Below are positions 27,618-38,651 of a DNA stretch of 64,000 bases, one piece after another. Made by a program: the position numbers and the translations under genes. The notes below the pieces were generated by a model. That model saw only the letters and a list, made by a program, of their open reading frames with translations, was not told the origin of the DNA and did no database searches. Source of the stretch: an uncultured Lachnospiraceae bacterium (GTDB lineage Bacteria; Bacillota; Clostridia; Lachnospirales; Lachnospiraceae). The stretch is from assembly GCA_947382645.1 (NCBI GenBank), contig CANDAE010000010.1, forward strand, positions 52,097 to 116,096. The letters run 5' to 3'. The first letter of the stretch is position 1. Each line of letters starts with the position of its first letter.

Positions 27618-27872
27618 ATGAAAAAAATAGGACTGGCAGTCTTTAAATTTACGTATTTTTTTACATGCTTCTTTTTCCTGTTCAGTAATACCGCATTTGC
27701 ATATATTGATCCGTCTGCAGTCACTTATGTGATTCAGGCTGTCGCAGGTATTTTCATTGCTGTAGGCGCTGCATGTACCGTTTACAGACACAAAATTGCA
27801 AAGTTTTTTCGAAAGATGAAGAAAAAACACAATAAAAAGAAACAGGAGAAGGAACAGGAGTCCCATGAATAG
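27618..27872 (+). CDS. Small membrane protein (signal peptide, YIDP motif, TM helix, basic tail)
   Basis: AAAGGA RBS; predicted AFA|YIDP cleavage site; hydrophobic VIQAVAGIFIAVGAACTVY; K-rich C-terminus. Overlaps the next gene by 8 nt. Confidence 0.75.
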   Translation: MKKIGLAVFKFTYFFTCFFFLFSNTAFAYIDPSAVTYVIQAVAGIFIAVGAACTVYRHKIAKFFRKMKKKHNKKKQEKEQESHE

Positions 27873-29808
27873 TATAATTAATCTGATCGGTGATATTCTG
27901 GGATGGCTGATGTATTTCAGTTATCATCTCCTGCATAATTATTTCTGGTCGATTTTATTTTTTACTTTTTTAACAAAAATTCTTTTATTTCCGGTTTCTC
28001 TAATGGTACAGAAAAATTCCATTAAGATGGTAAAGCTCCAGCCGGAAATTAATTTTATTAAAGCGAAATATTTTGGAAATGGCGAAAAAATATCAGAGGA
28101 ACAATATGAATTATATAAACGGGAACACTACCAGCCTTTAGCGGACTTAATTCCCCTGATTCTTCAACTTGTCCTTCTAATGGGTGTTATTAACGTCATT
28201 AATGATCCGGTAAAACATATTTTTCGAGGCGGCGCCGGAACATTAAATACCATGTTTGGCGGGATAGATTTGTCTTCCATCCCCATAGAAACAAGAGGAA
28301 TTACATATTTAATTCCTCTTATTGCTGCATTTTCCGCCTGGTTTATGTGTTTTATTCAAAACCGCATTAATGTGCTTCAATCCGAACAAAATAAATTCAA
28401 TCAATACGGCACTATGCTGTTGTCCATTGGCTTATCCCTGTATTTAGGCTTCTTTGTAAAAACCGGGGTTGGTATTTACTGGACATTTAGTAATTTACTT
28501 TCCATTGCTCAGTTATATTTACTTAACATCATTATGAATCCCAAAAAATATATTGATTATGATGCATTGGAAAAAAGCCGGAAAGAGCTTGCCGAAAGCT
28601 CGGCCTTTCACAAATCTTCACAGAAAAAATTATTTGATAAGGATCCTTACCGCAGGAAAGAGAAAGCCGACTATAAACGATTTTTCAAAGATTATGAAAT
28701 GCAGATTGTCTTTTATTCTGAGAAAAACGGGTTTTACAAATATTTTCAAAATATCATTGAAACCCTGTTAAAAAAATCAAACGTAATCATCAATTATATT
28801 ACAAGTGATCCGAAAGATCAGGTATTTCAAATGGAAAGCGACCGCTTCCGTCCTTTTTATATTGGCGAGCATAAATTAATTGTTCTTATGATGAAACTGG
28901 AAGCAGATCTGGTAGTTATGACCACTCCTGACCTGGAAAATTTTCATTTAAAACGCTCTCTGGTTCGAAAGGACAACGAATACATTTACGTTCCCCATGA
29001 TGTTAACAGCCCGAACCTTACTTTTCATAAAGATGCGCTGGATCATTTTGACACCATTTTTTCTTCCGGTTTTTTATGCACAAAGGAAATTCGAAAAAGG
29101 GAAGAATTATATCACCTGCCTTCCAAAAATATCATTGAATGGGGCTCCGGCGTAATTGACAATATGATTTTTGCATACGAGAATATGGATAAGCGCCGAA
29201 AAACTGTTCGGGAAATTCTGATTGCGCCTTCCTGGCAAAAGGACAATATTTTATCTTCCTGTATAGAAGAAATACTGGATTATCTGGGGGGACTTGGATA
29301 TAAAATTATTTTAAGGCCTCATCCTCAGTTTGTCCGCCATGAGGAAAGCCGGCTTGAATACCTGCGCCAAAAATATCATATGGATTCCCGTGATGACATG
29401 GAATTACAGACAGACTTTTCTTCCAACAGCACCATCTATGAAGCCGATCTTGTCATTACGGACTGGTCAAGTATTGCATTTGAATACTCCTTTGCAACAC
29501 TGAAACCATCTTTATTTATTAATACGCCAATGAAGATTATGAATGAAGACTATGAAGAGCTGGGAATTACCCCTATTGATATAGAGCTTCGCAATAAAGT
29601 GGGCAGAAGCGTTGAACTGGAAAGTTTAAAGGATTTGCCGAAAATTATACATGAATTACTAACCAGCAATGAATTTTCAAGAGAAAGCCTTCACAAAATC
29701 CGTGAAAAATATATTTATAATATTGGCTCCAGTGGAGAAAAAGGCGCAGATTATATTCTTGAAAGACTAAAGTATTATAAGAAAAAACATGAAGAGGAAG
29801 ACGACTGA
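27865..29808 (+). CDS. YidC/Oxa1 insertase domain fused to a CDP-glycerol glycerophosphotransferase (TagF/TagB-like) domain
   Basis: N-terminus: LTKILLFP...KLQPEI...ELYKRE...LIPLILQL...GVGIYWTFSNLLSIAQ (YidC core). C-terminus: ILIAPSW, LRPHPQ and ADLVITDWSSIAFEY (Glyphos_transf). Confidence 0.85.
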   Translation: MNSIINLIGDILGWLMYFSYHLLHNYFWSILFFTFLTKILLFPVSLMVQKNSIKMVKLQPEINFIKAKYFGNGEKISEEQYELYKREHYQPLADLIPLILQLVLLMGVINVINDPVKHIFRGGAGTLNTMFGGIDLSSIPIETRGITYLIPLIAAFSAWFMCFIQNRINVLQSEQNKFNQYGTMLLSIGLSLYLGFFVKTGVGIYWTFSNLLSIAQLYLLNIIMNPKKYIDYDALEKSRKELAESSAFHKSSQKKLFDKDPYRRKEKADYKRFFKDYEMQIVFYSEKNGFYKYFQNIIETLLKKSNVIINYITSDPKDQVFQMESDRFRPFYIGEHKLIVLMMKLEADLVVMTTPDLENFHLKRSLVRKDNEYIYVPHDVNSPNLTFHKDALDHFDTIFSSGFLCTKEIRKREELYHLPSKNIIEWGSGVIDNMIFAYENMDKRRKTVREILIAPSWQKDNILSSCIEEILDYLGGLGYKIILRPHPQFVRHEESRLEYLRQKYHMDSRDDMELQTDFSSNSTIYEADLVITDWSSIAFEYSFATLKPSLFINTPMKIMNEDYEELGITPIDIELRNKVGRSVELESLKDLPKIIHELLTSNEFSRESLHKIREKYIYNIGSSGEKGADYILERLKYYKKKHEEEDD

Positions 29809-29852: not shown

Positions 29853-30983
29853 ATGCAGATAGAAAGAAAAATATTATTAAATCCCGGACCTGCAACTACA
29901 ACAGATACTGTAAAAATGGCACAGATTGTACCTGACATCTGCCCAAGAGAAAAAGAATTTGCTTCCATGATGAAGCAGATGAGAGAAGATCTGGTCCGTA
30001 TTGTTCATGGCAGCCCTGATAAATACACTTCCGTCCTTTTCTGCGGTTCCGGAACCATTAATATTGATGTGTGTTTGAACTCACTTCTTCCCGAAGGAAA
30101 AAAGATATTAATTGTCAATAATGGTGCCTACAGCGCCCGGGCAGCGGAAGTATGTGAATATTACCATCTGCCATTTATCAATCTTAGATTTCCGGTGGAT
30201 GAACTGCCTGATTTGGCTCAAATTGAAACTGCGTTAAAAGAAAATCCGGATATTGCTCTGGTTCATACCACCCACAATGAAACCGGCACAGGTATCTTAA
30301 ATCCTATTCGGGAAATTGGCGCTCTGGTTCATAAATATCATGCTGTTTTTACGGTGGATACTACATCTACTTATGCCATGCGTCCAATTAACATAGAAGA
30401 AGACCAAATTGATTTTTGCATGGCTTCCGCCCAGAAGGGGCTTATGGCAATGACAGGACTGTCATTTATTGTTGGCAATAGGGAAATAATTAAAAAATCA
30501 GCTGAATATCCTAAACGTTCCTATTACTGCAACCTGTATCTGCAATATCATTTTTTTGAAACAACAGGAGAAATGCACTTTACTCCTCCCGTTCAGACAA
30601 TCTATGCCGCACGTCAGGCAATCAGGGAATACTTTGCAGAAGGAGAAGAGACGAAATGGCAGCGGCACTTAAGCGTTTTTCATGCCATTCATGAAGGACT
30701 TGACAGGCTGGGATTTAAAGATATTATTAAAAGAAAGTGGCAGGCAGGGCTTGTTGTTTCTGTCAGGTATCCGGATGATGCCAACTGGGATTTTGAAAAA
30801 ATTCATGACTATTGTTATGACAGAGGTTTTACAATTTATCCTGGAAAAATTTCCTCCCAGAACACTTTCAGATTATGCGCATTAGGCGCTATCACCACAG
30901 AAGATATTAAAAACTTTTTTGACATATTTGAGGAAGCCCTGAAAAAATATGAGATAAAAATTCCTGTTCAATATAATGATTAA
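29853..30983 (+). CDS. aepZ: 2-aminoethylphosphonate aminotransferase (PLP, class V)
   Basis: Motifs LLNPGPATT, NNGAYSAR, HNETGTGILNP, SAQKG and FTPP. Lies beside pepM. Confidence 0.92.
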   Translation: MQIERKILLNPGPATTTDTVKMAQIVPDICPREKEFASMMKQMREDLVRIVHGSPDKYTSVLFCGSGTINIDVCLNSLLPEGKKILIVNNGAYSARAAEVCEYYHLPFINLRFPVDELPDLAQIETALKENPDIALVHTTHNETGTGILNPIREIGALVHKYHAVFTVDTTSTYAMRPINIEEDQIDFCMASAQKGLMAMTGLSFIVGNREIIKKSAEYPKRSYYCNLYLQYHFFETTGEMHFTPPVQTIYAARQAIREYFAEGEETKWQRHLSVFHAIHEGLDRLGFKDIIKRKWQAGLVVSVRYPDDANWDFEKIHDYCYDRGFTIYPGKISSQNTFRLCALGAITTEDIKNFFDIFEEALKKYEIKIPVQYND

Positions 30984-31018
30984 CTGTTTTTAGTCCACAG
31001 AAAAGGAAATACAATAAA

Positions 31019-32314
31019 ATGAAAAAAGTATACACATGTTTCTGTACGGATGTGATCCATGAAGGCCATCTTAATATTTTAAAAGAAGCAAACAAATACG
31101 GTGATGTCACTGTAGGTATTCTCAGTGATGCCGCAATGATAAAGTACAACCGTTTTCCCACCATTTCCATTGAAGAGCGGAAAACAATTGTAAAAGAAAC
31201 CGGACTGGTTTCAAACATTATCATTCAGAACGAAATTATGTACGATAATGTCTTAGCACAGCTAAAACCCGACTACGTAATTCATGGCGATAACTGGTGC
31301 AAAGGTCCGGAAAGTGCAATCAGAACCAACGTAATTAATAATTTAAATAAATATGGCGGAAAACTGATTGAAATTGGTTACACTTATAATGAAAATGTCC
31401 GGAAAATTGACGATAACATAAAAGAAAAGCTTGCAATGCCTGAATTCAGAAGAAAACGTCTCCGCCAGCTTTTAAAATTATGCCCCATTGTAAAAGCAAT
31501 TGAGGCTCACAGCGGACTTACAGGGCTGATTGCGGAAAAAACAGTTGTTGAACACAACGGAGAATTAGATCAGTTTGATGCCATGTGGCTGTCGAGCCTT
31601 TGTGACTCTACTGCCAAAGGCAAACCTGATATTGAGCTTGTGGATATGTCCTCCAGAATACGCACCATTGACGATATTATGGAAGTAACTACAAAACCTG
31701 TTATTTTAGACGGAGATACCGGCGGTCTGGTGGAACATTTTATTTATAATGTGCGCACCTTAGAGCGCATGGGCGTATCGGCAGTGATTATTGAAGATAA
31801 AACCGGGCTTAAGAAAAATTCCTTATTTGGCACGGAAGTGGCACAGACACAGGATTCCATTGAAAACTTTTGCGAAAAGATTCGCGCCGGAAAAAATGCA
31901 CAGAGAACAGAAGAATTCATGATTATAGCCAGAATTGAAAGCCTGATTCTTGAAAAAGGCCAGGAAGATGCTCTTAAACGTGCTTTTGCATATGTGGATG
32001 CAGGCGCTGACGGTATTATGATTCATTCCAGAAAATCATTGCCTGACGAAATTTTTGCCTTTTGCGACGCTTTTAGAGCAAAAGATTCACATACACCCAT
32101 TGTTGTGGTTCCAACATCCTTCAACTGCGTGACAGAAGCAGAACTGATTAAGCATGGAGTAAATATTGTAATTTACGCAAACCAGTTAACGCGCAGCGCT
32201 TTTCCGGCCATGCAGAATACTGCCATAGATATTTTAAAAAACCACAGAGCTTTGGAAGTGGATTCCAGACTAATGCCTTTTAAAGAAATTATCACCTTAA
32301 TTGATGACATATAA
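31019..32314 (+). CDS. aepX: Phosphoenolpyruvate mutase with N-terminal cytidylyltransferase domain
   Basis: PepM signature EDKTGLKKNS and EAHSGLTG; N-terminal HxGH motif (DVIHEGH). Confidence 0.96.
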   Translation: MKKVYTCFCTDVIHEGHLNILKEANKYGDVTVGILSDAAMIKYNRFPTISIEERKTIVKETGLVSNIIIQNEIMYDNVLAQLKPDYVIHGDNWCKGPESAIRTNVINNLNKYGGKLIEIGYTYNENVRKIDDNIKEKLAMPEFRRKRLRQLLKLCPIVKAIEAHSGLTGLIAEKTVVEHNGELDQFDAMWLSSLCDSTAKGKPDIELVDMSSRIRTIDDIMEVTTKPVILDGDTGGLVEHFIYNVRTLERMGVSAVIIEDKTGLKKNSLFGTEVAQTQDSIENFCEKIRAGKNAQRTEEFMIIARIESLILEKGQEDALKRAFAYVDAGADGIMIHSRKSLPDEIFAFCDAFRAKDSHTPIVVVPTSFNCVTEAELIKHGVNIVIYANQLTRSAFPAMQNTAIDILKNHRALEVDSRLMPFKEIITLIDDI

Positions 32315-32327
32315 AGTGAGTAAAATT

Positions 32328-33038
32328 ATGAGCAAAGAAATTGGTATCATTATGGCAGCAGGGCTTGGAAGCAGAATGCACCCTGTCACAAAAACAATTC
32401 CCAAGCCTCTCGTAAAAGTATTTGGAAAACCTCTTATTGAAACTGTCATTGATGGCCTTTTAAAAAGAGGTGTTACGGAGATTTATGTTATTGTAGGCTA
32501 TTTAAAGGAATGTTTTTCCGGATTGTGCGATAAATATCCACAGATTACATTAATTACAAATCCCGATTACCTTGTGAAAAATAATATTTCTTCCATTTAT
32601 GCTGCCAGAAATGTTTTAGGCAAGGCCAATTGTTTTATCTGCGAAGCAGACTTGTTGATTTCCGATTCATCCGTATTTGAAAAAAAATTAAGCAGTTCCT
32701 GCTATTATGGCCGGATGATGGCCGGTGTTTCTGACGATTGGATCTTTGAATTAAAGGACGGTTATATTTCCAGAGTCAAAAAAGGTGGTAAAGATACCTA
32801 CAACATGGTGGGTATCTCCTACTTTACAAAAAAAGACAGCCTGATTTTAAAGGAAAAAATTGAGGAAGCATACCGCCAGGAGCAAAATTCCAATTTGTAT
32901 TGGGATGAGGTAGTGGACTTAAATCTGAACGAACTTAAACTTAAAATTGAGCCTGTAGAAGAAGGACAAATTATCGAAATTGATACGGTAGAAGAATTGC
33001 TTGCAATTGATCCAAATGCAGGAGAACAGGAGTGCTGA
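32328..33038 (+). CDS. LicC/PntC-like NTP transferase (probable AEP cytidylyltransferase)
   Basis: Motifs IIMAAGLGSRM, PKPLVKV, NNISS and EIDT. Sits between pepM and ppd. Confidence 0.8.
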   Translation: MSKEIGIIMAAGLGSRMHPVTKTIPKPLVKVFGKPLIETVIDGLLKRGVTEIYVIVGYLKECFSGLCDKYPQITLITNPDYLVKNNISSIYAARNVLGKANCFICEADLLISDSSVFEKKLSSSCYYGRMMAGVSDDWIFELKDGYISRVKKGGKDTYNMVGISYFTKKDSLILKEKIEEAYRQEQNSNLYWDEVVDLNLNELKLKIEPVEEGQIIEIDTVEELLAIDPNAGEQEC

Positions 33039-33040
33039 AA

Positions 33041-34189
33041 ATGAAAGCTGACTTTTTCTTACATAAAATAAATGAAATGGGCATTCAAACTATTGTCGGA
33101 GTGCCTGATTCCACATTAAAGCAGCTATGTGACGAAATTCAACTGGATGCCGGAAAAAATTTCCGTCATTACGTAACTGCAAACGAAGGGGCTGCTGTCG
33201 CCCTTGCTTCCGGTGAATATCTTGCCACAGACAGGCCATGCTGTGTCTATCTGCAGAACTCCGGCATTGGCAATATAATTAATCCGGTTGCTTCTATCAC
33301 CAACAGGGAAGTATATGGAATTCCAATGCTTTTTGTAATTGGCTGGCGGGGTGAACCGGGCAAAAAGGATGAACCCCAGCATGTCTATCAGGGAAAAATT
33401 ACCTGCAAATTACTGGAAGTAATGGACATTCCTTATTCCGTTATTGATTCTGAAACCACAAACGAGGAACTTGATACGATTCTTGCAAACGCAGATTCTC
33501 ACCTTTCAAATGAAATGCAATATGCTTTGGTAGTAAAAAAAGACACTTTTGAAAAGGGTTCTTCCTTTACCTGGGATAATGGCTATGCGCTTGTACGCGA
33601 ACAGGCCTTAAAAACAATTCTTGAGGAGGTATATGAAGATTCTTACCTTATATCCACCACTGGAAAAATTTCCAGGGAGCTGTACGAGCAGAGCAACCAG
33701 CTTTTTGGCAGTCATGAGCGGCTTTTTATGTGCGTTGGAGGCATGGGGCATGCATCCATGATCGCATATGGTATGGCACAGGCAGATAAAACGAAAAAAA
33801 TCGTCTGTATAGATGGAGACGGGGCCCTTATGATGCATATGGGTTCTTTGGCATTTATTGCAAAACAGGCTCCTGAAAATTATTTGCATATTGTAATCAA
33901 TAATGCTTCCCACGAATCAGTAGGCGCTATGCCTACCGGTTTTTCGGGCCAGACTTACGCTCAAATTGCAAAAGCATGCGGATATCCTCATGTCACTACC
34001 GTTTACACGAAAGAAGATCTTAAGGCAGCTTTACAGAAGGCTAAAAAAATGCAAAAACTTTCTTTCATTGAGGTTATGGTATCTCTGGATTCCAGAAAGG
34101 ATTTAGGCAGGCCTTTGGAAAGTGCAAGGGAAAACAGGATTCAATTTATGAATACCTGTATTAATCAATATAAGGGAGATTTTAAATGA
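33041..34189 (+). CDS. aepY: Phosphonopyruvate decarboxylase (ThDP)
   Basis: Motifs GVPDSTLK, ANEGAAV, YLQNSGIGN, DEPQH, GGMGHAS, DGDGALMMHMG and HESVG. Confidence 0.95.
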   Translation: MKADFFLHKINEMGIQTIVGVPDSTLKQLCDEIQLDAGKNFRHYVTANEGAAVALASGEYLATDRPCCVYLQNSGIGNIINPVASITNREVYGIPMLFVIGWRGEPGKKDEPQHVYQGKITCKLLEVMDIPYSVIDSETTNEELDTILANADSHLSNEMQYALVVKKDTFEKGSSFTWDNGYALVREQALKTILEEVYEDSYLISTTGKISRELYEQSNQLFGSHERLFMCVGGMGHASMIAYGMAQADKTKKIVCIDGDGALMMHMGSLAFIAKQAPENYLHIVINNASHESVGAMPTGFSGQTYAQIAKACGYPHVTTVYTKEDLKAALQKAKKMQKLSFIEVMVSLDSRKDLGRPLESARENRIQFMNTCINQYKGDFK

Positions 34190-35895
34190 AAGAAAAACTG
34201 AAAAATTGGGGCATCGGTTTTTTGATATGCTTTTTATTTGCCTTTATGCTTTTGATTTTCGGCCCGGCAGAAATTTATTTTGTAAATGTAGCTGAATTTA
34301 AATTTGTGTATGGTGAGTTTGTATGGCTCCTGTCCGGAATTGCCATAATCAGTTCCGCTGTCATAAGTTTTCTTGCTGCATTTCTTCCGCCTGTAGTAAG
34401 AAAAATTATATGGTCTGTTTTCTTCGGGCTGTCTGTTGCCGGTTATGCACAAATTATGTTTATCAATGAAGGGCTGGATCTGCTTGGAATGAATCCGGAA
34501 GGCTATCAATCCGGTATTGGACAGGCTGTTTTCAATGGCTTTCTATGGCTGGCGCTGCTTGCTCTTATTATTTTTCTGGCTTTATGGAAGGAAAAAATCT
34601 GGCAAAGCATCATTTGCTTTGGAGCAGTTTTTTTAATAGGCATTCAATCGGTTGCCTGGATTTCATTGATGTTATCGGCTGAAGAAATTGCATACAAATA
34701 CGAAGAAGGCGAATGGTCTCTTTCAGGTGAAGACCAGTTCAAAGTATCCTCTGGCAAAAATATTATTGTATTTGTACTGGATTATTTCAGCAATCAATAT
34801 ATAGAACCAACAATGGAACAGTACCCTGATCTGCTTGACGGTTTGAATGATTTTACCTACTACAGCAACACTGACTGCACCTATTTCGGCACATATCCAT
34901 CACTGGCACATATGCTGTCAGGCTCGGAACCTGATCCTTCAATTTCAATTAATGACTGGACCTCAAAAATATGGCAGGACGAAAAAACAGTGGGATTTTA
35001 TCAGGCTTTGCATGATCAGAATTATGTGGTAAATGTTTATACTCCGGATAAAAACATGCTTTGCGGCATGAACAGTGCAGAAATATTAAACCAAAATTTT
35101 TCCAACGTTACCAATGCCGGACAGGACTTTAATGTAAACTACGTCCTTCTTGCAAAAACAATGATTAAAATGTCAGCTTACCGTATGTTTCCATATGCAT
35201 TAAAACCTTATTTCTATGCAAATGTCAGCGAGTATTCTGAAATTATTACTCCGAAAAGCAGAGGAGTAAGCCATGAAAACCACCGTTATTATGGACATTT
35301 ACTGGAAGAAAAGCTTTCAACAGATGACAAATCAAATTATTATATATTCCAGCATTTGTCGGGAACTCATGTCTATGAAACAGACATAACAGGTGAATAT
35401 GCAGAAAACTCTTCTCTGGAAAAAACCGCAAAGGGCTGTATGGTCATCATGGAGGAATATTTAAATCAATTAAAAGAACTTGGAGTTTATGACGATGCCA
35501 CTATTATTATAACAGCAGATCATGGAGGTTCAAGGGACTCACAGGTTATATTTTTTATGAAAAATGCTCATGAATCCCATGAAGAAATGCTTATCAGCAA
35601 TGCTCCTATTGGTTTAACAGAATTTCAGGCGACTATTGCACAATCTGCCGGAATTGATTATTCACCTTATGGACCAGCAGTCAGCGATATCTCTCCCTCT
35701 ATACCCAGGGAAAGAACTGTATGGGTTCGTTTGTATGTTGATACCCTGCCCTCTGTTCCAAAATATTCCGGCGAAGGAGAAAGTGTATCCAATGCCTACT
35801 GCGGCTTTACCTATACGGGAGATATCAACGATCTATTCGAAAAATATGATGATGGACCAGATATTATCATTCCGGAAACAGACGGATTTTTCTAA
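34186..35895 (+). CDS. Multi-TM alkaline-phosphatase-superfamily protein (LtaS/EptA-like phospho(no)transferase)
   Basis: About 5 N-terminal TM helices, then VFVLDYF, GTYPSL (Thr at the nucleophile position), HLSGTH and IITADHG. Confidence 0.75.
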   Translation: MKEKLKNWGIGFLICFLFAFMLLIFGPAEIYFVNVAEFKFVYGEFVWLLSGIAIISSAVISFLAAFLPPVVRKIIWSVFFGLSVAGYAQIMFINEGLDLLGMNPEGYQSGIGQAVFNGFLWLALLALIIFLALWKEKIWQSIICFGAVFLIGIQSVAWISLMLSAEEIAYKYEEGEWSLSGEDQFKVSSGKNIIVFVLDYFSNQYIEPTMEQYPDLLDGLNDFTYYSNTDCTYFGTYPSLAHMLSGSEPDPSISINDWTSKIWQDEKTVGFYQALHDQNYVVNVYTPDKNMLCGMNSAEILNQNFSNVTNAGQDFNVNYVLLAKTMIKMSAYRMFPYALKPYFYANVSEYSEIITPKSRGVSHENHRYYGHLLEEKLSTDDKSNYYIFQHLSGTHVYETDITGEYAENSSLEKTAKGCMVIMEEYLNQLKELGVYDDATIIITADHGGSRDSQVIFFMKNAHESHEEMLISNAPIGLTEFQATIAQSAGIDYSPYGPAVSDISPSIPRERTVWVRLYVDTLPSVPKYSGEGESVSNAYCGFTYTGDINDLFEKYDDGPDIIIPETDGFF

Positions 35896-36011
35896 AAAAA
35901 CGTAACTATATAAACAACGTACGCTGCCTTCATAAGGCATCCTATGTTAATAAAATCATGTAAGTCTTTTCTGCATGGAAAGGGCTTATGTGGGAAAGCA
36001 CAGGTATAACA

Positions 36012-37325
36012 ATGAACATAGTTTTATTATCCGGCGGCTCAGGCAAACGATTATGGCCGCTATCCAACGATATTCGTTCCAAACAGTTTATTAAAATTTT
36101 CAAAACACCGGAAGGCGGCTATGAATCTATGGTGCAGCGCGTTTATCATCAGATTCGTAAGGCTGATGAAAATGCCACCATCACCATTGCCACATCCAAA
36201 ACACAGGTATCTGCAATTCACAATCAATTAGGTGATAATGTGGGTATTTCCGTAGAGCCCTGCAGAAGAGATACCTTTCCGGCAATTGCCCTGGCAACCG
36301 CTTACCTTCATGATGTTCTGGGCATTTCCAGGGAAGAATCTGTGGTAGTCTGTCCCGTGGATCCTTACGTGGAGGATGATTATTTTGAAATGATTAAGAA
36401 ATTAAGTCTTCAGGCAGATAAGGGAGAAGCAAATCTGGTTTTAATGGGAATTGAACCTACCTACCCCAGTGAAAAGTATGGTTATATCATCCCGGAAAAC
36501 AGTAATTTTATCAGTGATGTTTCCTGCTTTAAAGAAAAACCTGATGTAAAAACTGCCAAAGAATATATTTCCCAGGGAGCTTTGTGGAATGGAGGCGTGT
36601 TTGCTTATAAGTTAAAGTACGTCCTTGATAAAGCACATGAATTAATTGACTTTACTGACTATGAAGATTTGTTTTCCAGGTATGAAACTTTAACTAAAAT
36701 AAGTTTTGACTATGCAGTGGTGGAAAAAGAAAGTAAAATTCAGGTAATGCGTTTTTCCGGCCAGTGGAAGGATCTGGGCACCTGGAATACCCTGACGGAA
36801 GCAATGGAAGAGCCTAATGTTGGAGAAGCTGTAATGAATGAAACATGCAGCAATGTTCACATTATTAATGAACTTGATGTTCCCATTCTTGCGATGGGAT
36901 TATCTGACGTAGTTATCTCAGCCAGCCCGGATGGCATTCTGGTTTCAGATAAAGAGCAGTCAAGTTACATTAAGCCTTTTGTTGATAAATTTGACCAGCA
37001 GATTATGTTTGCAGAAAAATCCTGGGGAAGTTTTCGGGTACTGGATGTAGAATCAGGCAGTATGACCATAAAAGTTATTTTAAACCCGGGACATAAAATG
37101 AACTATCACAGTCATAAACACAGGGATGAAATCTGGGTAGTTATCTCCGGCACAGGACATACTGTTGTAGACGGAATGGAACAAAAAGTCAGCGCCGGTG
37201 ACGTAATCACCATGCAGGCCGGATGTCGTCATACTATTTTTGCCGATACAGAATTAAAGCTGATCGAGGTTCAATTAGGCAAGGAAATCAGTGTTCATGA
37301 TAAACAAAAATTTGCACTTGAATAA
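36012..37325 (+). CDS. manC: Mannose-1-phosphate guanylyltransferase with C-terminal cupin
   Basis: Motifs LSGGSGKRLWPLS, VEPCRRDT, YGYI, FKEKP, SFDYAVVE, WKDLGTW and EKSWG...H. Confidence 0.88.
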   Translation: MNIVLLSGGSGKRLWPLSNDIRSKQFIKIFKTPEGGYESMVQRVYHQIRKADENATITIATSKTQVSAIHNQLGDNVGISVEPCRRDTFPAIALATAYLHDVLGISREESVVVCPVDPYVEDDYFEMIKKLSLQADKGEANLVLMGIEPTYPSEKYGYIIPENSNFISDVSCFKEKPDVKTAKEYISQGALWNGGVFAYKLKYVLDKAHELIDFTDYEDLFSRYETLTKISFDYAVVEKESKIQVMRFSGQWKDLGTWNTLTEAMEEPNVGEAVMNETCSNVHIINELDVPILAMGLSDVVISASPDGILVSDKEQSSYIKPFVDKFDQQIMFAEKSWGSFRVLDVESGSMTIKVILNPGHKMNYHSHKHRDEIWVVISGTGHTVVDGMEQKVSAGDVITMQAGCRHTIFADTELKLIEVQLGKEISVHDKQKFALE

Positions 37326-38301
37326 CCCCTTTTTATTAAAACCGGCAGGAAAAGATTATCTGTGGGGCGGCCGCCGGTTAAATGACGATTTTTCAAAAGG
37401 CATTGATATGACGCCGCTGGCGGAAACCTGGGAATGTTCTACCCATCCTGATGGCCTCAGTATCATAAACAGCGGAGTTCATAAAGGCGCTTTTCTTTCT
37501 GACGTGCTGCAGGCACACCCTGAATATTTGGGCCTGCATTCCATGTCCCAAAAAGAGCTTCCAATCCTGATTAAATTTATTGATGCAAAAGATGATTTGT
37601 CTGTACAGGTGCATCCGGACGACGCTTACGCAATGGCCCATGAAAAAGGCGCCAACGGAAAAACAGAAATGTGGTACGTTATGGATGCTTCAAAAGACGC
37701 TAAGCTCATCTACGGTCTTTCCCACACTGCCGATAAGGAAACCATAAAAAAAGGAATTGAAGAGGGAACCCTTGAAAAGTACCTTCAAAAAGTACCTGTT
37801 AAAAAAAATGATGTTTTTTCCATAGAGCCCGGCACCATACATGCCATTGGTGCAGGTGCCCTGATTGCAGAAGTACAGGAAAATTCAAATATTACTTACC
37901 GCCTGTATGATTATGACCGTATAGATAAAACAGGGCATAAAAGAGCTCTGCATATAGAAAAAGCTCTTGATGTGGCTAATTTAAACGGAATCGAAGCACC
38001 AAGACAAAATTTAAGGGTATTAAAATATCAGCCCGGTTGTGCTGTTGAGTTTTTATACCGCTGTAAATATTTTCAAGTGGAACGTATGCTGGTAAATACG
38101 GAGCGGATTCGTGAAATGGTTCCCTTTGCCACCACCGAACTTTCCTTTGAAGTACTGCTGTGCATGGATGGCTGCGGAAGTATATCCTTCGGAAAAAATG
38201 AAATGCTCCACTTCTTTCGCGGCGACTGTATTTTTGTACCTGCAAGCTCTGTTTCCATTAAAATTCATGGCAGTGCACAATTCTTAAAGGTAGGCTGTTA
38301 G
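37291..38301 (+). CDS. manA: Mannose-6-phosphate isomerase, class I
   Basis: Motifs KDYLWGG, LPILIKFIDA, LSVQVHP, GKTEMWY, GTIHAIG and EVQENSNITYRLYDY. Exact start uncertain. Confidence 0.92.
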   Translation: MFMINKNLHLNNPFLLKPAGKDYLWGGRRLNDDFSKGIDMTPLAETWECSTHPDGLSIINSGVHKGAFLSDVLQAHPEYLGLHSMSQKELPILIKFIDAKDDLSVQVHPDDAYAMAHEKGANGKTEMWYVMDASKDAKLIYGLSHTADKETIKKGIEEGTLEKYLQKVPVKKNDVFSIEPGTIHAIGAGALIAEVQENSNITYRLYDYDRIDKTGHKRALHIEKALDVANLNGIEAPRQNLRVLKYQPGCAVEFLYRCKYFQVERMLVNTERIREMVPFATTELSFEVLLCMDGCGSISFGKNEMLHFFRGDCIFVPASSVSIKIHGSAQFLKVGC

Positions 38302-38369: not shown

Positions 38370-38651
38370 CTAAACCGTTGATGCGGAGATAAAGGTGATG
38401 ATGCTCCCACAGAGAGCCCGGATTGCTGAGAACGGGCGGAAAACAAATCATCAAATGGACCGCTGAGGGTGCAGTGAACAATAGTTGCTTCGTAACTATT
38501 CAGTATTCTGCAACGTAAGGCATACGTCAGTTGCCAGGGATATGATGGTATCCCGTAAGCGTACAGCATGGGCTGTAAATCAAGGTGGCACCGCGGATAT
38601 AGTATACTTATTCGTCCTTGACAGAAATACTTCTGTCAGGGGCGTTTTTTT
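38370..38651 (+). ncRNA. T-box riboswitch (tryptophan specifier)
   Basis: AG box (acagagagc), GCTGAG, a UGG specifier at 38456-38458, T-box AAGGTGGCACCGCG at 38582-38595, and a terminator cgtccttgacag...ctgtcaggggcg-TTTTTTT upstream of trpE. Confidence 0.92.

Follow-up and report, generated by a model that had tools for sequence, protein, structure and literature searches.

How aminoethylphosphonate (AEP) is attached to the bacterial surface once it has been made and activated in the cytoplasm is the question raised by a locus in an uncultured Lachnospiraceae bacterium (GenBank assembly GCA_947382645.1, contig CANDAE010000010.1, positions 52,097 to 116,096 of the forward strand; this whole stretch of 64,000 nucleotides is called the window here, and positions without a further label refer to it). 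Directly 3' of the AEP genes, an intact open reading frame (ORF) on the plus strand (34186..35895) encodes a protein of 569 amino acids that resembles membrane enzymes of the alkaline phosphatase (AP) superfamily and is called the AP-like protein below. Most bacterial phosphonate biosynthesis is thought to be destined for cell-surface decoration. We propose that the AP-like protein is probably an AEP transferase of the outside face of the membrane, which moves AEP from a lipid-linked carrier, charged from cytidine monophosphate (CMP)-AEP by a YidC-TagF fusion protein, onto a surface glycopolymer. With less confidence, we consider it possible that the protein is the outside enzyme of a new relay, in which a microprotein, the YidC-TagF fusion, and the AP-like protein move CMP-activated headgroups across the membrane on a lipid carrier. 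The headgroup of such a relay would be AEP in this locus and phosphocholine, glycerol-phosphate, or amino-alcohol phosphates elsewhere.

The formation of CMP-AEP was established by Rice et al. (2019). For the steps downstream of this intermediate, which in their words "remain enigmatic", they drew attention to LicD-like phosphotransferases or glycosyltransferases in three species (PMC6697681). In full-text literature searches, we found no published description of the AP-like family or of the three-part module. The sole published mention of sulfatase-family genes beside AEP genes that we found is that of Li and Horsman (2022), where such genes adjoin the AEP genes in Selenomonas neighbourhoods (GCF 400); these "multiple sulfatases" were merely listed, and no function, partners, or mechanism were proposed for them (PMC8942020).

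Results

The AP-like gene is a real gene rather than a chance ORF, because its product is matched by 3510 cluster representatives at E ≤ 1e-3 and by 1021 at E ≤ 1e-30. NCBI annotates the members of the family as "hypothetical protein". In an AlphaFold2 (AF2) model built on 45 homologues, with a mean predicted local distance difference test (pLDDT) score of 89, long N-terminal helices (residues 2-33, 43-64, 69-93, 111-134, and 136-164) are followed by an alpha/beta domain, and the hydropathy profile is consistent with five N-terminal transmembrane (TM) helices. The predicted membrane domain thus comprises residues 1-165 (34186..34680). Lysine and arginine residues are found in the N-terminal tail and in loops 65-72 and 133-140, while acidic residues occupy loop 94-112 and the linker that follows TM5. 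According to the positive-inside rule, this pattern predicts a cytoplasmic N-terminus and a catalytic domain on the outside. Conserved polar residues (N34, Y87, Q89, and N94) lie at the outer ends of the helices, and a conserved W121 lies within TM4. Taken together, the hydropathy profile, the positive-inside rule, and the AF2 helices predict that the catalytic domain (residues ~186-569; 34741..35892) is extracytoplasmic.

The AP fold of this domain is indicated by both structure and profile comparisons. A Foldseek search of the PDB returned 195 matches at E ≤ 1e-3 with a probability of 1.0, all of them in the AP superfamily and at 10-17% identity. The top full-length matches were PbgA/YejM (6xlp and 6v8q), followed by LtaS, LtaP, and EptA (5fgn), and the neighbours also included S1 sulfatases and phosphonate monoester hydrolases (4upk, 2vqr, 2w8s, and 9gve). 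When a profile of the 151-sequence family was compared by hhalign with a profile of 18 LtaS orthologues, the probability was 99.1% in global mode (E = 1.6e-17) and 97.5% in local mode (E = 8.8e-12). In a phmmer search against the PDB, Staphylococcus aureus LtaS was matched at E = 0.007 over a segment ending in A-D-H-G. Escherichia coli EptA and OpgB align to the AP-like protein only at the DHG segment, both as single sequences and against a close-family profile with an effective number of sequences (Neff) of 2.3. Curated models score low on the protein: the Pfam Sulfatase model stays below its threshold (24.3 bits against a gathering cut-off of 25), the match to Phosphodiest is also sub-threshold and weak, and the NCBIfam LtaS model NF053595 gives 14.8 bits against a cut-off of 970. 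Because neither the NCBIfam LtaS nor the Pfam Sulfatase model is passed, we regard the proteins as a family in its own right, which no curated model represents and which shares the mechanistic type of LtaS, EptA, OpgB, and GacH. The AP-like protein is predicted to be an outward-facing membrane enzyme of the AP superfamily that resembles LtaS and EptA. An earlier interpretation based on the letters of the DNA and its ORFs (the sequence-only reading) had proposed about five TM helices followed by an AP-superfamily domain, and the AF2 model and the Foldseek matches agree with it.

The motifs that the sequence-only reading had picked out are all present, namely L198-D199, G235-T-Y-P-S239, H390/H395, and A444-D-H-G447. 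Their conservation was assessed in an alignment of the AP-like protein with 150 representatives at 28-48% identity (151 sequences). D199 (34780..34782), a predicted metal ligand that is found in 148/148 sequences, is paired by HMMER with E255 of the LtaS structure 2w5q, where NIIVFVLDYF of the AP-like protein falls on NIIKIHLESF; residue numbers of the 2w5q chain were verified against its construct, which starts at residue 218. D445 and H446 (35518..35523), also predicted metal ligands, are conserved in 147/147 and 146/147 sequences and fall on LtaS D475-H476. The protein thus has the metal-binding pattern of the AP superfamily, in which an acidic residue following strand 1 is joined by a D-H pair. 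The conserved H395 (35368..35370; 147/148) lies one position off the histidine of the LtaS "SNH" segment in the profile alignment, and N192, K340, K459, R508, and R510 are likewise nearly invariant. The predicted nucleophile is T236 (34891..34893) in the segment T-Y-P-S-L. Of the 150 relatives, 145 have Thr and 5 have Ser at this position, which holds the sole invariant hydroxyl residue of the segment, and helix 236-245 of the AF2 model begins at it. Conservation and motif thus make T236 a well-supported candidate for the nucleophile, and alignment leaves this role unproven.

The segment T236-Y-P-S-L240 shares its register with the sulfatase motif C-x-P-S-R, with Thr in the place of Cys and a hydrophobic residue in the place of Arg. 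Position 240 is chiefly M, I, L, or V among the relatives, and R is outside its five commonest residues. The sulfatase motif C/S-x-P-x-R itself is absent from the AP-like protein, and the nearby C231 is not conserved among the 150 relatives, in agreement with the proposal of the sequence-only reading that the protein has Thr rather than the Cys of CxPxR. A genuine CTPSR sulfatase is encoded elsewhere in the host genome (C10:15739-16851), and the three PF00884 matches of this genome are that sulfatase, the AP-like protein, and one weak match. When the family profile was compared with this CTPSR sulfatase by hhalign, only the C-terminal half aligned. The AP-like protein is the sole membrane-anchored AP-type enzyme detected in the host genome, in which a canonical LtaS was not found (E ≤ 1e-60). 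A Pfam scan confined to the genes of the operon and its flanks found no maturase gene (anSME or FGE).

The closest genetic partner of the AP-like gene is the gene for a YidC-TagF fusion. We surveyed 301 Lachnospiraceae genomes, approximately one per genus, and found the AP-like family in 19, the YidC-TagF fusion in 18, and phosphoenolpyruvate (PEP) mutase (Ppm) in 37. The AP-like and YidC-TagF genes occur together in 17 genomes, that is, in 17/18 of the YidC-TagF carriers (Fisher p = 1.3e-24), and in 15 genomes they lie no more than about 6 kb apart. By comparison, Ppm is nearby in only six of these pairs, and six module-bearing genomes lack Ppm entirely. Ppm as the primary partner of the family is rejected in view of these six genomes and of the 31/37 Ppm genomes considered in the Discussion. 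Since the family is present in only 19/301 genomes, it is not a housekeeping lipoteichoic acid synthase. In the two AP-like genomes without YidC-TagF (G075 and G144), a YidC domain is fused to the AP-like protein itself, giving proteins of 787 and 1079 amino acids. The fusion in G075 (L039 9414-11777) has a stand-alone TagF-like gene alongside and a TagD-like cytidylyltransferase beside it, and that in G144 (L040 3411-6650; 1079 amino acids) is immediately preceded by a TagF-like match that extends over the start of the ORF. From these two fusions, the YidC fold looks like a hub that can be attached to either enzyme.

Further fusions link the parts of the module in several orders. We found AP-YidC-TagF (P0161), YidC-TagF-AP (P0280 and L120), YidC-AP (P0207, L039, and L040), and microprotein-AP (P0231 and P0278) fusions. 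One triple fusion of 1224 amino acids is encoded by Lachnospiraceae bacterium RGIG9225 (L120 7958-11632). As a separate observation, the triple YidC/TagF-like/AP-like polypeptides span 1206-1224 amino acids and occur in both possible orders (L120, P0161, and P0280). The YidC core has its N-terminus outside and its C-terminus inside, and TagF-like domains are cytoplasmic; judged by this established topology, all of the fusion orders would be topologically coherent.

The third part of the module is a microprotein of about 85 amino acids, which was found in 12/12 module loci of the initial set. Its N-terminus resembles a signal peptide, and it further contains a conserved YIDPS motif, a single TM helix, and a basic tail. 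In a scan of species-representative genomes, 77 loci related to the AP-like gene were examined with 10-kb flanks. YidC-TagF was present within 10 kb in 48/77 loci, a microprotein on the same strand accompanied it in all 48, and Ppm was present in 40. Orphan loci, with no YidC-TagF in this range, follow the same rule at the level of the genome: 22/23 of the genomes tested carry a full-length YidC-TagF elsewhere, against a background of 6%, and often just past 10 kb. These genomes carry Ppm in 19/23 cases, usually 2-4 kb from YidC-TagF. For six further orphan copies, the same assembly has a full module at another locus of the set. The cultured type strain Roseburia inulinivorans DSM 16841 has three AP-like copies, two adjacent and one divergent (L086-L088 set). 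Some 14 kb appear to separate them from YidC-TagF and the AEP genes, a distance taken from coordinates only and on the assumption that contig C84 is the L086 record. The idea that orphan copies (P0129-type and Roseburia) are independent of YidC-TagF is therefore refuted for 22/23 of the orphan genomes tested. Thus, YidC-TagF and the microprotein are the most conserved partners of the AP-like protein, above the phosphonate genes. The sequence-only reading had suggested a link to TagF-YidC, and the co-occurrence in 17/18 carriers, the adjacency, and the fusions make this link much stronger than that reading could know.

One orphan type deserves separate mention. Protein P0129 (L005/L006), a homologue with 51% identity that was seen in 127 collection blocks, has no YidC-TagF within 10 kb, and its glycan locus contains a CTP_transf_3 cytidylyltransferase, an HMGL-like aldolase, a HAD phosphatase, an ATP-binding cassette (ABC) exporter, and GT-C-like proteins. 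More generally, one to three tandem AP-like paralogues accompany a single YidC-TagF, and extra copies are dispersed inside other glycan loci. Most relatives of the AP-like protein belong to large loci for surface glycans, which also encode glycosyltransferases, ABC exporters, and GT-C-like proteins.

The module adjoins exchangeable cassettes for CMP-activated headgroups. These consist of the AEP genes; a BCCT transporter with LicC and a LicC-choline kinase fusion; a LicC-kinase fusion with a permease; a TagD-like cytidylyltransferase; a nucleotidyltransferase-aminotransferase fusion; or a class-V aminotransferase with a cytidylyltransferase-oxidoreductase fusion. Because sister clades adjoin choline, cytidine diphosphate (CDP)-glycerol-type, and other cassettes, the AP-like family as a whole is not phosphonate-specific. 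In a FastTree phylogeny of 116 AP-like sequences, the protein of the window falls within a 65-member clade (support 98), the module-adjacent members of which comprise 48 that are AEP-linked and 2 that are not; one of these two lies at a contig edge, and Ppd is present. The non-AEP modules have deeper-branching, longer AP-like proteins. On the tree, the AEP/non-AEP label changes 7 times, as compared with a mean of 19.3 and a minimum of 14 in 200 shuffles. The clade is thus almost exclusively linked to the AEP cassette. The AEP link drawn from the sequence alone therefore stands for this clade, and phosphonate specificity does not extend to the whole family.

Several side observations concern these cassettes. 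Unusual ones occur at the Ppm-free module loci L009 (10599-12422), L043 (7884-9689), and L011 (14121-16519), and the Ppm-free set includes an NTP-transferase fused to a class I/II aminotransferase and a class-V aminotransferase adjoining a cytidylyltransferase-GFO/IDH oxidoreductase fusion. It may be that these cassettes make CMP-activated amino-alcohol phosphates. A second, longer AP-like paralogue of 700-730 amino acids is present at several AEP loci beside the AEP-clade enzyme of ~570 amino acids and belongs to a deep clade shared with choline-type modules; such long paralogues are encoded at L057 18272-20380, L060 14011-16155, L083 19198-21309, L067 14054-16177, and L081 1059-3257. In Lachnospiraceae, two types of Ppm are found, cytidylyltransferase-Ppm fusions of ~430-460 amino acids and ORFs of ~650-700 amino acids around the Ppm match, and every Ppm that adjoins an AP-like/YidC-TagF module is of the shorter type (~430-460 amino acids).

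All three parts of the module are present in the window, on the plus strand. The ORF for the microprotein, of 84 amino acids here (27618..27872), overlaps the start of the gene for the 647-amino-acid YidC-TagF fusion (27865..29808), in which Pfam and NCBIfam profiles identify the YidC insertase core (60KD_IMP) and a TagF-like CDP-glycerol glycerophosphotransferase domain (Glyphos_transf). The AEP/CMP-AEP cassette follows at 29853..34189. It is composed of genes for the AEP transaminase PhnW/AepZ (29853-30983; TIGR03301, 459.7 bits), a cytidylyltransferase-Ppm fusion (31019-32314; TIGR02320, 410.4 bits), a LicC-like NTP transferase (nucleotidyltransferase; 32301-33038), and the phosphonopyruvate decarboxylase Ppd (33032-34189; TIGR03297, 450.4 bits). 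These profile scores bear out the upstream genes named in the sequence-only reading, which had also described the AP-like ORF as overlapping aepY by 4 nt. We found this overlap: the start codon ATG at 34186 overlaps the TGA of the Ppd gene (33032..34189) by 4 nt (ATGA, 34186-34189). Given this overlap and the ribosome-binding site AAGGGAGA at 34172-34179 (together 34172..34189), the AP-like gene appears to be translationally coupled to the Ppd gene.

The position of the AP-like gene varies among relatives and its membership of the operon is kept; it lies 3' of Ppd here and 5' of the microprotein gene in most relatives. Proteins of ~588 amino acids without a Pfam match that occupy the slot after Ppd in relatives (L001 and L004) were considered as divergent paralogues of the AP-like protein and found to be unrelated. 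On the 3' side of the gene lie a ManC-like (35988-37325) and a ManA-like gene (37291-38301), both on the plus strand. The first strong terminator-like hairpin in this direction is at 38613, and since none precedes it, the two genes are possibly on the same transcript as the AP-like gene. Neither gene is conserved with the module at other loci, and a link with the module is doubtful because ManC is near only 2/77 related loci. A histidine kinase, an AraC-type response regulator, and a sugar ABC transporter are encoded upstream of the operon on the opposite strand. No glycosyltransferase was found by the Pfam scan among the genes of the operon and its flanks.

Discussion

AEP and CMP-AEP synthesis by the Ppm, Ppd, PhnW, and cytidylyltransferase families is established chemistry. 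In this locus, Ppm, Ppd, and PhnW would make AEP and the cytidylyltransferase would convert it to CMP-AEP. With CMP-AEP as the donor, the cytoplasmic TagF-like domain may then load AEP onto a lipid carrier in the membrane, at a hydroxyl or a phosphate group, and the YidC-fold domain, together with the microprotein, may present or flip the AEP-lipid to the outer leaflet. There, the five-TM domain of the AP-like protein would bind the AEP-lipid, and T236, activated by metal held on D199, D445, and H446, would attack the phosphorus, so that the carrier is released and an AEP-Thr intermediate is formed. A hydroxyl group on a glycopolymer or glycolipid of the surface could finally accept the AEP. 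An AP-type attack on an AEP ester must either move or hydrolyse AEP, because only the phosphorus-oxygen bond to the carrier can be cleaved and the phosphorus-carbon (C-P) bond is inert. We prefer a dedicated donor over bulk phosphatidylglycerol (PG) or phosphatidylethanolamine (PE) because of the near-obligate coupling and fusion to YidC-TagF. The absence of glycosyltransferases from the operon fits the decoration of a polymer that is made elsewhere. The tandem and dispersed paralogues probably serve different acceptors from one shared donor-making machine; acceptor-specific transferases of this kind are favoured by the tandem paralogues, by the dispersed copies, and by the absence of glycan-assembly genes from the operon. 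An extracellular AEP transferase had already been suggested by the sequence-only reading, and its fold, motif, topology, and TagF-YidC link held up, while for the lipid-AEP donor and its flipping, the acceptor, and transfer as opposed to hydrolysis we rely on inference.

Several points weigh against an outside AEP transferase. When the check on the Thr that accompanied the sequence-only reading was made by sequence profile (hhalign), T236 was set two residues N-terminal of the LtaS catalytic Thr (G-K-T-S-D); the T236 region is a low-confidence loop in this alignment and is two residues shorter in the AP-like protein than in LtaS. We take the catalytic Thr of the comparison enzymes to be T300 in LtaS and T280 in EptA. 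A Smith-Waterman alignment of the N-terminal segment with the true sulfatase is ambiguous and not significant: it places the nonconserved C231 on the sulfatase Cys, at a score reached by 11/500 shuffles. Moreover, 31/37 Ppm-positive Lachnospiraceae genomes have no AP-like gene near Ppm, which implies that AEP can be used without this enzyme. The correlation between clade and cassette is partly confounded by organismal relatedness, an effect that neither the FastTree support values nor the label shuffles take away, and the non-AEP modules nonetheless come from the same bacterial family as the AEP modules. To our knowledge, a flippase role of the YidC fold is unproven. Finally, TagF-family enzymes normally act in the cytoplasm and directly on lipid-linked glycans, which would make an AEP transferase on the outside unnecessary.

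Four other explanations were considered, and they are taken here in descending order of probability. The first, which we regard as unlikely, is that the AP-like protein is an extracytoplasmic phosphonate-monoester or phosphodiester hydrolase that trims AEP or other headgroups off surface polymers or the carrier, so that its role would be editing, recycling, or carrier release and no acceptor would receive the headgroup. Covalent chemistry on Thr, as in a transferase, does yield hydrolysis when water takes the place of the acceptor, and both the phosphonate monoester hydrolases and sulfatases among the structural neighbours and the weak Phosphodiest match are in keeping with this idea. However, the architecture of five TM helices and an outside AP domain is that of the lipid-donor transferases LtaS, EptA, and OpgB, and the known phosphonate monoester hydrolases are soluble and use a formylglycine, the motif for which is absent here. 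One to three tandem paralogues per YidC-TagF also suit acceptor-specific transferases better, and fusion to a biosynthetic transferase would be odd for an antagonist.

Also improbable, in our view, is an LtaS/GacH/EptA-like enzyme that works on ordinary PG or PE, with AEP being attached separately in the cytoplasm by the TagF-like domain. The product of such an enzyme would be glycerol-phosphate or phosphoethanolamine that builds or decorates the acceptor polymer. Every characterised enzyme of this architecture that we know of draws its headgroup from bulk phospholipid, the direct action of TagF-family enzymes on lipid-linked glycans agrees with a separate route for AEP, and the AP-like protein could substitute for the canonical LtaS that the host genome lacks. 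With a bulk donor, YidC-TagF would be needless, yet it accompanies the AP-like gene in 17/19 genomes, is replaced by YidC-AP fusions in the other 2, is present in 22/23 orphan genomes, and has been fused to the protein repeatedly. In addition, the clades follow the headgroup cassette.

We give a low probability to a lipid as the end product, in which case the AP-like protein would move AEP between lipids, for instance to a glycolipid anchor rather than a wall polymer, and yield a membrane phosphonolipid or phosphono-glycolipid. The Selenomonas AEP neighbourhoods with "multiple sulfatases" were earlier classed as "Group 4 phosphonolipids" (PMC8942020), and the operon of the window is without glycan-assembly genes. 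The location of most relatives in large surface-glycan loci, among glycosyltransferases, ABC exporters, and GT-C-like proteins, argues for a polymer instead. This explanation is a variant of the proposed AEP transferase with a different acceptor more than a true rival. A true sulfatase or a non-catalytic, PbgA/YejM-like lipid sensor is highly improbable, and both are rejected on motif and conservation grounds: the weak Sulfatase match of 24.3 bits and the PbgA/YejM top hits are outweighed by the missing C/S-x-P-x-R motif with L240 in the place of R, the lack of a maturase gene in the operon, the separate CTPSR sulfatase of the genome, a constellation of metal ligands and nucleophile that is invariant over 151 diverse sequences, and the Gram-negative context of PbgA/YejM, which bind lipopolysaccharide or cardiolipin, sense lipopolysaccharide, and have no proven activity as headgroup transferases, as opposed to a host of the Gram-positive-lineage Lachnospiraceae.

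The proposed outside AEP transferase has several counterparts among known systems. In LtaS, EptA/MCR-1, OpgB, and GacH, a Thr first binds a phospho-headgroup covalently, taking it from a membrane lipid, and the headgroup is then handed on to an acceptor at the surface. The lipoteichoic acid synthase LtaS and primase LtaP (S. aureus 2W5Q; Listeria monocytogenes 4UOR/4UOP) share with the AP-like protein the five N-terminal TM helices and the extracellular AP-fold domain; LtaS is its best sequence and profile relative, its metal ligands align, and a Thr nucleophile would be expected at a helix start in both. In contrast, identity to LtaS is only ~17%, and LtaS takes its headgroup from PG and needs no dedicated partner, whereas the AP-like family goes together with the YidC-TagF fusion, the microprotein, and a cassette for a CMP-activated headgroup. 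Because AEP cannot be polymerised, the AP-like protein would decorate an acceptor and not build a polymer as LtaS does.

AEP is a C-P isostere of phosphoethanolamine. EptA, MCR-1, EptC, and PptA, which transfer phosphoethanolamine (and phosphocholine), likewise have a membrane-anchored AP fold. On the outer side of the cytoplasmic membrane, their Thr nucleophile relocates a small zwitterionic headgroup of the aminoalkyl-phospho type from a lipid donor to an acceptor at the surface, but they draw the headgroup from bulk PE and occur in Gram-negative bacteria, and we know of no member of this family that transfers a phosphonate. The glycerol-phosphate transferases GacH/SccH, which act on rhamnose polysaccharides of streptococci (bioRxiv 10.1101/337519), and OpgB of E. 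coli, the gene for which is annotated as phosphoglycerol transferase I, are LtaS-like enzymes encoded in or near glycan loci. They add a phospho-headgroup to a glycan on the outside, once it has been exported. Unlike the AP-like protein, they depend on phosphatidylglycerol as the donor and have no cytoplasmic TagF-like or YidC partner.

Relays of cytoplasmic loading, membrane crossing, and outside transfer, often with acceptor-specific paralogues, are known from glucosylation by GtrA/GtrB/GtrC and CsbB/GtcA/YfhO and from D-alanylation by DltABCD-DltX, where DltX shows that a conserved microprotein can form part of a system of this kind. These systems differ from the present module in their folds (GT-A, GT-C, and MBOAT) and in their cargo, which is a sugar or D-alanine. 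Enzymes of the LicD type in the Lic pathway and the proposed Pnt pathway have been proposed to use CDP-choline or CMP-AEP for the decoration of surface glycans (PMC6697681). LicD enzymes, unlike the AP-like protein, are cytoplasmic, act on lipid-linked precursors, and have a different fold, and the operon of the window has no LicD and contains the TagF-like/YidC/AP-like set instead.

The AP-like protein is a concrete candidate for the AEP attachment step in common gut Lachnospiraceae, including the cultured R. inulinivorans DSM 16841. If our proposal is true, the mechanism of LtaS, EptA, and MCR would be extended to a purpose-made donor supplied by a dedicated partner and to a C-P headgroup. 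If the tentative relay described above also exists, its outside enzyme would be the first known extracellular phosphonyl (C-P headgroup) transferase and would supply the missing last step of "Pnt" phosphonate tailoring in gut Firmicutes. The partnership with YidC raises the possibility that a universal insertase fold has been recruited for lipid-linked cargo instead of nascent protein. In commensals, AEP and phosphocholine on the surface may help to determine how the host immune system recognises the cell and how phages adsorb to it, and once the enzyme that attaches them is known, these questions would become open to genetics.

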